64,000 nucleotides of DNA from Loktanella sp. (GCA_024686085.1 JAIBDT010000004.1:2213-66212), one strand, 5' to 3'; positions 6,334-8,615 are shown, numbered from the stretch's first letter. Program-made: numbers and translations. The notes: generated by a model from the sequence alone, not told the origin.

Positions 6334-7191
6334 TTGGCGGGAAGAGGTGTTCCAAAATTCCTTTTTAGATATCGCCGAGAAGACTCGTCTTATTTTTGGG
6401 AAGAGCTAGAAAGAGCAATAGGAAGTCGCGAGTTCTATTTTGCGAGCGCGGAACTTCTTAATGATCCATTTGAGATACGGCCAACTATTACGAAACCTAG
6501 TCCAGTTGAGTTTTTGAAGGTTTTGGAAGCCAAGTACGGGAAGAATCCCGTTATTTCGCGTGTAACCTTAGAAAAGTACTATGGGGAAAAGCTTACTCGG
6601 CAAAAGCATCGTCGGGAACTTAAGGGCTTTGCTCCATCTCTTAAGATTGCCAATTGGATGATCAACCAGACAGAACAGACCTTTTCAAAAATGAATAGTC
6701 GTACTCGGGTTGTTTGTTTTAACGAGACTCCGATGTCGCTTCCGATGTGGGCACACTACGCAAATAACCACCGGGGCATTTGCTTGAGCTTTGAGCAAGT
6801 CTTGCAGGAACATATTGAACCGGACTTTGTACCCATGAAAGTCTCATACTCAAGTGAGCGGCCCATTTTAGACATTGGAGAATTTGAAAGTGCTAGCATA
6901 GGTGGCGAAGGTTTTTCGCCTGAAAGCGCGTTGAAATTTGCCAGCTCGATGTACCTAACGAAAGCCGCCGACTGGAGCTACGAAAAGGAATGGCGCGCTT
7001 TCGACAATGACGGGCTAGCGCCTGACTATGAACGAATGTCAGTTCTGAAACCTCATTCGATTATTCTAGGTATGAATGCCTCGAAGGATTTGAAAGACAA
7101 AATAATTGAGATGTACGGTAAACGAATGCGCTTATTGGAAGCGCAATCTGTTGGCGACAAATACGAGTTAGCATTTAAGAATTTGAATTAG
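6334..7191 (+). CDS. DUF2971 domain protein
   Basis: LNDPFE, MWAHYANNHRGICL, LTKAADWSYEKEWR motifs; visibly AT-richer than lepA; start codon uncertain (TTG). Confidence 0.8.
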   Translation: MAGRGVPKFLFRYRREDSSYFWEELERAIGSREFYFASAELLNDPFEIRPTITKPSPVEFLKVLEAKYGKNPVISRVTLEKYYGEKLTRQKHRRELKGFAPSLKIANWMINQTEQTFSKMNSRTRVVCFNETPMSLPMWAHYANNHRGICLSFEQVLQEHIEPDFVPMKVSYSSERPILDIGEFESASIGGEGFSPESALKFASSMYLTKAADWSYEKEWRAFDNDGLAPDYERMSVLKPHSIILGMNASKDLKDKIIEMYGKRMRLLEAQSVGDKYELAFKNLN

Positions 7192-7228
7192 TCTATGCCA
7201 AATTTCCAATTTGGCAGCGCCCGAGCCA

Positions 7229-7612
7229 GCGCTTCGCGCGTTCGACCCTGAAACTGTTCTCGACAGTTTCCGAGACGGGTCTCACCCACCCCCACGGGGC
7301 GGGCGCTTTCAGCACCAGCCCCTCGGTTCGGGCGCGGCTGGTAATTAAGCGGGTCGTTTGCATCTATCGCTTCCCCTGCGCTGCGCGCGTTCGGCCCTGA
7401 AACTGTCCTCGACAGTTTCCGAGGCGGGCCTCACCCCCTCGGTTCGGGCGCGGCTGGTAATGACGGGGATCGTTTGCATCCGCACTGGGCTCCGCCCGTT
7501 CGAACCTGAATTGATCCACTGGATCAATTCCTAGACGGTTCTCACCCCCCTGCGCTGCGCGCGTTCGGTCCTAGAAACTGTCCTCGACAGTTTCTTTCAC
7601 GGACCTCACCCC
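7229..7612. repeat. cluster of four ~60-bp structured palindromic repeats (REP/REPIN-like) plus a 27-bp direct repeat
   Basis: Units at 7229-7287, 7378-7438, 7489-7548, 7552-7612: GCGCT(G/T)CGCGCGTTC-5bp stem-inner hairpin-5bp stem-TCACCC; CCCCTCGGTTCGGGCGCGGCTGGTAAT at 7319-7345 and 7435-7461. Confidence 0.9.
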
Positions 7613-7683
7613 CGTTTTGACCCACATCAAAGACCGCGTGACCTCTATCGCTAGAGTGGCTTCAAATCTTATAGGAGACACCC

Positions 7684-7872
7684 ATGTTTCAGTTCACAAT
7701 GATGCTTTATTCGATCATCGGCACCAGTGTCGCAGGCATGTTTATCGTGGCCGCTTTGGTGTCGGGCAATGATACGTTGATACCGATTTTGGTTGCGGCG
7801 GGGCTGGGTGCGGTTGTGGCTTTGCCTGCGTCGTATTTGGTTGCCCGCGCGATTATGGCGAACAAGAAGTAG
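7684..7872 (+). CDS. small two-TM membrane protein (conserved hypothetical)
   Basis: 62 aa hydrophobic hairpin; AGGAG RBS. Confidence 0.75.
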   Translation: MFQFTMMLYSIIGTSVAGMFIVAALVSGNDTLIPILVAAGLGAVVALPASYLVARAIMANKK

Positions 7873-7874
7873 CG

Positions 7875-8615
7875 TTACATCGCCAGAAATGCCCGCACGG
7901 CGGCCTCGAATTCGCGCGGTTTTTCGGCGTGCAGCCAGTGGCCTGCGTCCGGAATTTTGGCGAAATGCGCGTTTGGGAATAGCTGTTTGATCCGCGGGCG
8001 GTCGTCGCGTTTCACGTAGTCTGATTTCGCCCCTGACAGGAATAGCGTTTGCCCGTCAAAGCGGCCTGACACCTCGGGGAAGCCCACGATTTTGCCCATT
8101 TCCGCGTCGAGCACGTCGAGGTTCAGTTTCCATTTCCGCTCTTTCAGGTCGAGCGATTGCAGCAGGAATGTATCAACGCCGGGTTCTAGTCCTGTCAGTT
8201 GGGCTTGGGCGTCGGCGCGCGAGTTGATCGCGGTCAGATCGACCCCCCGCATAGCCGTGATCGGTCCCATTTGTGTGTGGGTGTAGGGCACGGGTGCGAT
8301 GTCGGCGACGATCAGTTTGCGCAGCTTTTCGGGGTGGTTAAGTGCCAGCACCATCGCCGCTTTGCCGCCCATCGAGTGGCCGAGCACGTCTGTTGGTTCG
8401 CCTATGACCTGCGCCAGATCGCCCGCCATGTCGCTGTAGCTTTGGCTATCAAACCAAGGGCTAGCCCCGTGGTTGCGCATGTCCACACAGATCACTGGCC
8501 GCGTCTCGGACAGCCGCTTGGCAATCACGTTCCAGTTGCGCGCCGAGCCGAAAAGCCCATGCGCGATGAGAAGGGGGGTGCCTGCGGGGCCGTCGTAGTG
8601 AACCGTGTTTAACAT
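7875..8615 (-). CDS. alpha/beta hydrolase, YbfF-like esterase
   Basis: HGLFGS, DMRNHG, GHSMGGK, AGHWLHAE. Confidence 0.9.
   Translation of the reverse strand: MLNTVHYDGPAGTPLLIAHGLFGSARNWNVIAKRLSETRPVICVDMRNHGASPWFDSQSYSDMAGDLAQVIGEPTDVLGHSMGGKAAMVLALNHPEKLRKLIVADIAPVPYTHTQMGPITAMRGVDLTAINSRADAQAQLTGLEPGVDTFLLQSLDLKERKWKLNLDVLDAEMGKIVGFPEVSGRFDGQTLFLSGAKSDYVKRDDRPRIKQLFPNAHFAKIPDAGHWLHAEKPREFEAAVRAFLAM

Follow-up and report, generated by a model that had tools for sequence, protein, structure and literature searches.

The window, i.e. the whole stretch of 64,000 nt of DNA that was analysed, contains at 7226-7616, on the + strand, a cluster of four head-to-tail units, each about 67 nt long and each with three helices. 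The cluster belongs to a mosaic of repeated modules: the local order is lepA, a low-GC gene of the DUF2971 type, the mosaic, a gene for a membrane protein of 62 aa and, on the other strand, a hydrolase gene. The DUF2971 gene (6334..7191, +), directly upstream of the cluster, is an accessory gene, which matches Pfam PF11185 (E 2.2e-11) and PDC-S31, a PADLOC candidate single-gene defence family (E 6.7e-42); its GC content is 42-46% vs 55% for the genome, and it is context, not part of the repeat. The downstream bound is the ORF of the 62-aa membrane protein (7684..7872, +), found with 57-72% identity in 10 loci of eight other Yoonia genomes. The TTGACC...CTATCG sequence upstream of it is read as promoter-like, and in other Yoonia loci, too, a TTGACCCA motif stands after the mosaic; a scan for consensus sigma-70 promoters found none ahead of this gene.

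The mosaic opens with the hairpin TGCCAAATT-TCC-AATTTGGCA (7196..7216, +; read from the sequence), whose place is taken in other Yoonia loci by different but paired hairpins, followed by GCGCCCG. Next comes GCAGCGCCCGAG (7214..7228, +), the left arm of a second repeat, here called X, complementary to 7325-7338 and 7441-7454. Repeat X, which reads GGCAGCGCCCGGA-CCTCCCC-CAT-GGGGAGG-GCGCT and has an inverse partner, CCCCGAGGTCCGGGCGCTGCC, forms mosaics with the unit. The first unit, U1, is inserted into X, the right part of which, a CCCACCCC-CAC-GGGGCGGG-CGCT hairpin (7287..7312, +), directly follows it; a homologous CCCTCCCC-CAT-GGGGAGGGCGCT follows units on contig C21 of the same genome and in other Yoonia genomes. 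X is uninterrupted in loci L008, L012, L014 and L180, and interrupted by a unit in L015, L019, L021 and L022; its CCTCCCC run appears to be a preferred insertion point of the unit. The spacers contain a direct repeat, D5, in two copies, D5a (CCCCTCGGTTCGGGCGCGGCTGGTAAT...; 7316..7364, +) and D5b (7432..7480, +), and D5-related modules are also present on C21. The original prediction had described here a duplicated block of 27 bp: an exact stretch of 27 nt does exist, but the full duplicate measures 49 nt (7316-7364/7432-7480), with 90% identity.

Fold and covariation of the four units

In each unit a small 5' hairpin (P1) is accompanied by an outer helix of 5 bp (P2) and an inner one of 9-10 bp (P3). 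Unpaired positions are a single bulged base (5' side), a CGAGAC-like loop of six bases (3' side) and a C-rich tail, TCACCC. U1 (7226-7292, +) combines P1 GCGC/GCGC, P2 GACCC/GGGTC, P3 GAAACTGTT/GACAGTTTC and the tail TCACCC; it scores 89.8 bits with the covariance model described below, and the three-helix shape is also found by fold prediction. U2 (7375-7441, +; 93.3 bits) has P2 GGCCC/GGGCC. U3 (7484-7552, +; 82.9 bits) features P1 GGGC/GCCC, P2 GAACC/GGTTC and P3 GAATTGATCC/GGATCAATTC, while U4 (7549-7616, +; 87.5 bits) features P2 GGTCC/GGACC and a P3 of 10 bp. As originally proposed, all four point the same way, and the outer stems, when read again unit by unit, covary.

The P3 hairpin is GAAACTGT(T/C)-CTC-GACAGTTTC in U1, U2 and U4, and GAATTGATCC-ACT-GGATCAATTC, different yet equally paired, in U3, in agreement with the earlier description. 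U3 belongs to a different subfamily: the same type of P3 is found in Yoonia genomes G021 (L019:1248) and G012 (L052:1709, with a one-base difference in the 3' arm), as well as in the G015 array orthologous to that of the window. The ends of the units had been described as conserved and unpaired. This is true of the TCACCC tail; the 5' end, GCGCTNCGCGC, is instead the covarying 4-bp hairpin P1, of the form GCGC-NNN-GCGC, replaced by GGGC-TCC-GCCC in U3.

In the alignment of the four units, standard pairs occupy 72 of 72 pair cells, and 7 of the 18 pairs are changed on both sides; when the partners are slid by 1-3 columns, as a control, pairing falls to 24-46%. The folds of the units are more stable than those of shuffled sequences, with z from -2.0 to -4.3. 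The pattern seen in the window goes far beyond what chance would give, as hundreds of copies elsewhere share its architecture.

A number of other structured features were considered for the cluster. A relic of a tRNA or tmRNA is not supported by ARAGORN, which gave a single tRNA-Gly, far away; the units have no T-run, and no + strand intrinsic terminator is present at 7100-7950. A closing helix between a 5' GGGG and a 3' CCCC shows, by inspection, no covariation with the GCGC-type P1. Comparison with Rfam 15 (cmscan of 6500-8500, both strands, E up to 10) returned just three matches, all at chance level.

Distribution and consensus of the family

A covariance model was built from the four units of the window, calibrated and used for genome scans. 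In this genome it finds six copies, the four of the window and two on contig C21, which a simple pattern scan had missed. Short motifs of the mosaic, when searched with mismatches, produced noise. Among Yoonia, 19 of 25 genomes, this one included, carry the element, with 1-14 copies each; within one GTDB family, the named matches of which are Rhodobacteraceae, a match is found in 119 of 301 genera (about 40%). Copy number per genome ranges from 0 to 30, with 12-30 in the copy-rich genomes when these are recounted with laxer filters. The model found no copy in about 298 genomes of other alphaproteobacterial families. In an exact-pattern scan, the named matches listed are all from Rhodobacterales or unclassified metagenome bins; the genera among them include Yoonia, Ruegeria, Phaeobacter, Leisingera, Roseovarius, Sulfitobacter, Paracoccus, Thioclava and Rhodovulum. 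Six unannotated plasmid matches were also obtained, and none in cultured phage genomes. The units are therefore members of a repeat family, as first supposed, since the model recovers further copies both in this genome and in its relatives.

Covariation was judged on a larger scale by pair counts, with shuffled and slid controls, on a set of 98 copies drawn from genomes among the exact-pattern matches listed. Pairs are found in 97.2% of cells, and 12 of the 18 pairs are changed on both sides; the covariation score is 0.356 vs 0.082 after shuffling, and slid controls are at most 56% paired. A set of 30 copies gives 96.9% of cells paired. The covariation seen in the window thus holds on the larger alignment.

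The consensus may be written as (CC)K-GGGC-TCC-GCCC-GTTCG-[P2 5 bp]-T-GAAAC-NNN-TCC-loop-GGA-NNN-GTTTC-CGAGAC-[P2']-TCACCCC, the conserved parts being also read as (CC)K-GGGC-TCC-GCCC-GTTCG...CTGAAAC...TCC-loop-GGA...GTTTC-CGAGAC-G...TCACCCC. Free variation is limited to about 3 bp of P2 and 3 bp of P3; the remaining sequence is strongly conserved, including the single-stranded segments GTTCG, CGAGAC and TCACCCC. The view that structure is selected rather than sequence needs, accordingly, to be corrected: compensatory changes do keep the structure, but the sequence is strongly conserved too. The element is about 67-72 nt long, with a second subtype of about 85 nt, in which the 3' internal loop is replaced by a fourth hairpin of variable sequence, generating a three-way junction.

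No named family corresponds to the element: Rfam contains no match, and no description was found by text searches of the literature or in the REP surveys consulted. The family is apparently undescribed, although of a known general kind, that of small structured repeats. Rhodobacteraceae (roseobacters, Paracoccus, relatives of Rhodobacter) include major marine and model bacteria, in which hundreds of copies can now be annotated with the calibrated model. Stop codons, in-frame insertions and artefacts at gene boundaries arise from these copies, which can also mislead the prediction of sRNAs and terminators.

Mobility and relation to known repeats

The unit inserts as a discrete piece. The clearest case is that of Roseovarius sp. 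MBR-78, where two copies of an IS256-type transposase, 93% identical, are one filled with a unit and the other empty: the empty site reads ...CTCAAAGG^CTTCCCCGA..., the filled one ...CTCAAAGG[GGCTCCGCCC...GGCGCGAA]CTCCCCGA..., with a junction that is approximate, because the two IS copies differ by 7%. This filled/empty pair, the sole clean one, shows no target-site duplication; a search for another clean empty site gave none, and genome G192 has no close relatives in the set. The ends of the element, GGGGCTCCGCCCGT and GGGGTGAGNNCCGT on the reverse strand, are only loosely inverted and form an imperfect terminal inverted repeat; a transposase-derived MITE is defined by terminal inverted repeats that match an IS and by duplication of the target site. 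Two further units disrupt genes for IS256 transposases and shift their reading frames. A small conserved membrane-protein gene of Yoonia G007 contains a unit in frame: the protein ...LIILPEILPPEAP... becomes ...LIILP-TGLRPFAAETVHWTVSGTPLTP-PPEAP..., while about a dozen other Yoonia have the C-terminus LIILPEILPPEAP, or close variants of it, and no unit. Comparison of the alleles indicates here a replacement of 9 nt by 69 nt, not a simple insertion. In six prophage contigs a 5'-truncated unit is nested in the P3 hairpin of another unit. Landing sites are thus intergenic DNA, other repeats and IS elements, and occasionally genes, in frame.

The unit also amplifies into genome-specific subfamilies: copies of the same genome have a mean identity of 0.94 (G192) or 0.90 (a Paracoccaceae bin), vs 0.75 between genomes. 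Arrays vary in the number of units, as the one orthologous to the window cluster, in Yoonia G015 (L007), contains three, U2 being the missing one.

Other differences were seen at single loci. At L016 and L017 (genomes G016 and G014) a unit is found at an unrelated locus, accompanied by 15 nt (left) and 8 nt (right) of flanking sequence from the G007-type gene (cttatcatcttgcca...ccggaggc), and in G016 the "home" locus of that unit is empty; comparison of L016/L017 with L011 suggests that short flanks can travel along with the unit. The filled IS256 copy of MBR-78 (L080, about 2120-2165) features a second insertion, of 41 nt, with respect to its sister copy, GTTCGCCATTG...CAATGGCTCAC; by its GTTCG...CTCAC look, this may be a miniature relative of the unit.

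A gene that might mobilise the element was searched for in several ways. The original prediction had suggested a linked RAYT gene, by analogy with REPINs, but the presence of Y1/RAYT genes does not track the element across genomes. Pfam Y1_Tnp (PF01797) is absent from all five copy-rich genomes. RAYT-like proteins are encoded by 10 of the 10 Yoonia genomes searched (this one included), four of which have zero copies of the element, and are missing from G192, G337, G228, G323, G102, G300 and G348; the Roseovarius genome holding the insertion polymorphism is among those without. Oppositely oriented copies bracketing a transposase were also considered: the intervening genes are LysE, EamA, CobS, PhoX and ribosomal proteins. 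In G192 and in a repeat-rich Paracoccaceae bin, neither a longer autonomous element nor a parent IS for the unit was found, the shared sequence ending at 70-300 nt. This genome contains, in addition, 13 fragments of an IS200/IS605-type Y1 transposase at contig ends (C101:6-92, C100, C67, C18, C32 and others); a multicopy IS probably breaks the draft assembly at these points, and has nothing to do with the repeat.

In its behaviour the element resembles small structured repeats such as REPs, MITEs, Rickettsia palindromic elements (RPE) and ERIC. REP, BIME and REPIN-RAYT systems of enterobacteria and pseudomonads, including the GTAG REPs of Di Nocera et al. 2013 (PMC3733652), are close to it, as they are short, hairpin-forming and mostly intergenic, occur in lineage-specific families and form mosaics with other modules; they also share with it a preference for gene ends and a terminus donating a stop codon, the TAG of GTAG in REPs, the TGA of GGGGTGAG here. 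However, a REP is a single imperfect palindrome of about 20-40 nt with a conserved head, GTAG or similar, whereas the element is 67-85 nt long, with three or four helices and no GTAG. REPINs and BIMEs are inverted doublets; a head-to-tail order is found for the window units, for the two on C21 and for arrays of other genera, and other copies are solitary. Moreover, REPINs have a RAYT partner, while no linked or co-occurring RAYT accompanies the element, and the proposed REPIN/RAYT analogy is not supported. True GTAG REPs with RAYT do coexist in Yoonia, and look different (GTAGGGTGGGTGAAACCCACGCG); in L209 (Yoonia G023:C237, 1684-2400) they flank a RAYT-like gene with the HUH motif LPDHIHAV, a homologue of which is found in this genome at C2:15599-16057.

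Elements of the RPE, ERIC, Correia/NEMIS, BOX and RIME type are likewise non-autonomous, structured, 60-150 nt long and modular or mosaic; they tolerate transcribed regions, may provide in-frame copies within ORFs, and mostly lack a recognised transposase. They share no sequence similarity with the element, for which neither clear terminal inverted repeats nor a target duplication were observed. A stop codon and a ribosome-binding site at opposite ends, both described below, are not known from elements of this class; nor are restriction to a single bacterial family and presence at many junctions of a single prophage family.

CGTC REPs have an 8-9 bp stem right after the tag, a loop of 4-5 nt and a CCA tail, and form mostly head-to-head dimers (PMC3733652). 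Like the element, they are alphaproteobacterial and without an associated transposase gene, and the reverse strand of the element does contain CGTC a few bases before an A/T-flanked stem (CGTCTCG-GAAAC...). Here, however, the tag is followed by a 3-nt spacer, a stem of 9-11 bp and a loop of 3 nt, with no CCA tail; the helices P1 and P2 are additional, and arrays are head-to-tail. The cuckoo, or CcsR, sRNAs (RF02344) are composed of two to four adjacent hairpins with CCUCCUCCC in each loop (PMC4615179); CCTCCTCCC has no match in 7190-7620, even allowing one mismatch. The element, in conclusion, fails the definitions of REP/REPIN-RAYT, CGTC REP, attC (see below) and cuckoo sRNA.

Our preferred reading, to which we assign a probability of about 0.7, is that the four units represent copies of a non-autonomous mobile element, a small piece of DNA limited to Rhodobacteraceae and their prophages. 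The requirement for its hairpins would lie in the DNA, where a putative host or phage enzyme would act on them in single-stranded or cruciform form; alternatively, they may be kept paired through hairpin-templated repair. A requirement of this kind would explain strictly Watson-Crick stems with a few freely varying positions. Insertion would prefer G-run/C-run sites similar to the element's own end, and prophages would carry the element between genera. The window cluster may be regarded as a local array, formed partly by repeated insertion, given the two subfamilies and the location of U1 within another repeat, and partly by duplication of blocks made of a unit and its spacer. Nothing suggests a local function for the cluster: its compensatory changes reflect subfamilies of the element, not a locus-specific regulatory RNA. 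The family lends itself to the study of a structured mobile element for which no transposase is known, of the choice of Gly+stop gene ends as targets and of dispersal by a prophage family.

Gene ends, prophages and accessory genes

On the reverse strand the element opens with GGGGTGAG, the TGA of which is the stop codon of the abutting gene. The end of an opposite-strand gene falls precisely 11 nt into the 3' tail in about 18 of the 98 copies of the wide sample, and at least 25 different genes end in ...Gly-TGA (G-TGA) within the element; from their C-terminal sequences, some of them are presumably sucC, sucD, asd, an acyl-CoA synthetase and a peptidase. For gene families that could be aligned at the C-terminus, the orthologue of this genome, without element, also ends in Gly, followed there by TAA, in 7 of 11 cases: insertion or retention, therefore, strongly prefers ends that resemble the terminus of the element. 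The clean empty site (^CTTCCCC) and the insertion point within repeat X (^CCTCCCC) likewise resemble its tail. Donation of TAG stops has been reported also for GTAG REPs (PMC3733652). Most copies in Yoonia and in the copy-rich genomes have the direction of the upstream gene, and most of those in the wide sample are antisense and abut stops, the two samples having been analysed by different crude gene callers. The units of the window are co-oriented with the flanking genes, and neither the stop nor the ribosome-binding feature is in use here.

The ribosome-binding feature is seen in prophages. In IMG/VR the core pattern is found in 52 contigs, 51 of which have a common neighbourhood, a phage replication module with an AAA_24 ATPase, a helicase, DUF6511, a primase/helicase, a RuvC-like resolvase and a ParB-methyltransferase. 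Copies of the element, all of one subfamily, are present in this module at five or more different junctions of co-directional genes. Read in the direction of the genes, gene A runs into ...GGG TGA G, the hairpins come next, and GGGC-GGA-GCCC-N8 precedes the ATG of gene B: GGAG is found 8 nt before an ATG in 18 of 29 distinct prophage copies, a long ORF ending at the TGA in 19, and both features in 15. Operons tolerate the element, since it ends with GGAG 8 nt ahead of the next start codon. Nine diverged phages have an orthologous junction in common, where identity is 97.6% for the element (a figure inflated by the choice of phage copies by exact pattern) and 76% and 87.5% for the flanking genes; a conservation higher than that of the flanking genes would also fit a functional sequence. 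Carriage by prophages offers a possible route of spread within the family.

A rival reading is that the element might act mainly as RNA, as a portable module of intercistronic regions and 3' ends transcribed from the strand complementary to the model, where stop codon, stable hairpins and Shine-Dalgarno sequence would set mRNA stability, processing or translational coupling, and mobility would be a mere means of spread. Such a role would account for the five or more prophage positions between genes of the same direction, where the element has TGA at one end and, at the other, GGAG 8 nt ahead of an ATG, for the 31% of chromosomal copies of the wide sample which abut the stop codon of a gene, and for the conservation above flanking coding DNA at the orthologous phage site; the insertion of a variable hairpin in one subtype is a typical trait of structured RNAs, and REPs and ERICs have been reported to act on mRNA in this way (PMC3733652). 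We consider it unlikely, nevertheless. The window units and most Yoonia copies are oriented the opposite way, several copies lie beyond intrinsic terminators (L018, L022, L180), copies within IS genes and nested copies serve no transcript, and, within one genus, species have anything from 0 to 30 copies. Base pairing points in the same direction. In 2823 pair cells from 160 distinct copies, 24 G-U, 36 A-C and 41 other mismatches are found; as A-C corresponds to G-U on the other strand, wobble is favoured on neither strand, so that a constraint at the DNA level is more likely. Strict Watson-Crick pairing would better fit a DNA-level requirement, or hairpin-templated correction, than a classical RNA.

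A further reading is also doubtful: the element might be a self-contained mobile intercistronic cassette, homing to Gly+stop ends via its GGGGTGA terminus, moved by a putative non-RAYT enzyme of host or prophage, and selected in phage operons as a processing or coupling RNA.

The strict pairing suits DNA also if the element were a putative protein-binding signal, such as a single-strand initiation or origin hairpin of the prophage primase/helicase, or a gyrase- or IHF-type site of the kind found in BIMEs, with chromosomal copies as relics or decoys; several prophage copies lie in the replication module, one of them directly upstream of the primase/helicase gene, and conserved single-stranded segments (GTTCG, CGAGAC, TCACCCC) stand beside variable stems, but prophage copies are scattered over at least five intercistronic positions, and we consider this reading very improbable.

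The mobile DNA element that we favour is also found next to accessory genes, and the original prediction had proposed that the cluster may mark or drive an insertion hotspot. The hotspot itself is real: four gene contents are found among Yoonia species between lepA and the small membrane-protein gene. In place of the DUF2971 gene, the lepA interval contains a RAYT with GTAG REPs in G023, a membrane-protein gene in G020 and another gene in G012, with zero, zero and one unit, respectively. At the second locus of this genome, on C21, the order is upstream gene, low-GC ORF of 170 aa, mosaic and downstream gene, where the flanking genes, judged from their N-terminal sequences, are assumed to be RimO-like (upstream) and of the DCC family (downstream). 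Both loci share the same layout, and the association with low-GC accessory genes is therefore real.

The cluster would drive the hotspot if the units were recombination sites, similar to integron attC or to dif, taking up single accessory genes. In attC sites, core sites R''/R', RYYYAAC...GTTRRRY, surround a bulged hairpin, cassettes lie between sites and intI is nearby. Structure-based recognition and a stop codon inside the site are indeed attC-like traits, the succession of core gene, low-GC accessory gene, mosaic and core gene is found at both loci of this genome and in a ribosomal-protein operon of Yoonia, and the gene of the lepA interval differs among four Yoonia species. Yet the unit consensus includes no RYYYAAC/GTTRRRY core sites, the spacings of 65-149 nt hold neither cassettes nor ORFs, and no recombinase gene was seen adjoining the clusters (the flanks being lepA, DUF2971, the small membrane protein and the hydrolase). 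Most copies elsewhere are solitary, between housekeeping genes or in prophage operons, and in G020 the hotspot features an accessory gene and other mosaic modules, but no unit. We regard this explanation as having very little chance of being correct.

Two other Yoonia loci show further arrangements of the mosaic. In G021 (L180, 5880-7060) about 900 nt split the ribosomal-protein operon between rpmD (L30) and rplO (L15): the insert is composed of a terminator, a small low-GC ORF, a mosaic with one unit and a promoter-like TTGACC...CTATAC before rplO. In G009:C8 (L012), upstream of 1501, four tandem 16-nt motifs (CCTGCGCTTCGCACCC), P1-like, precede a full unit.
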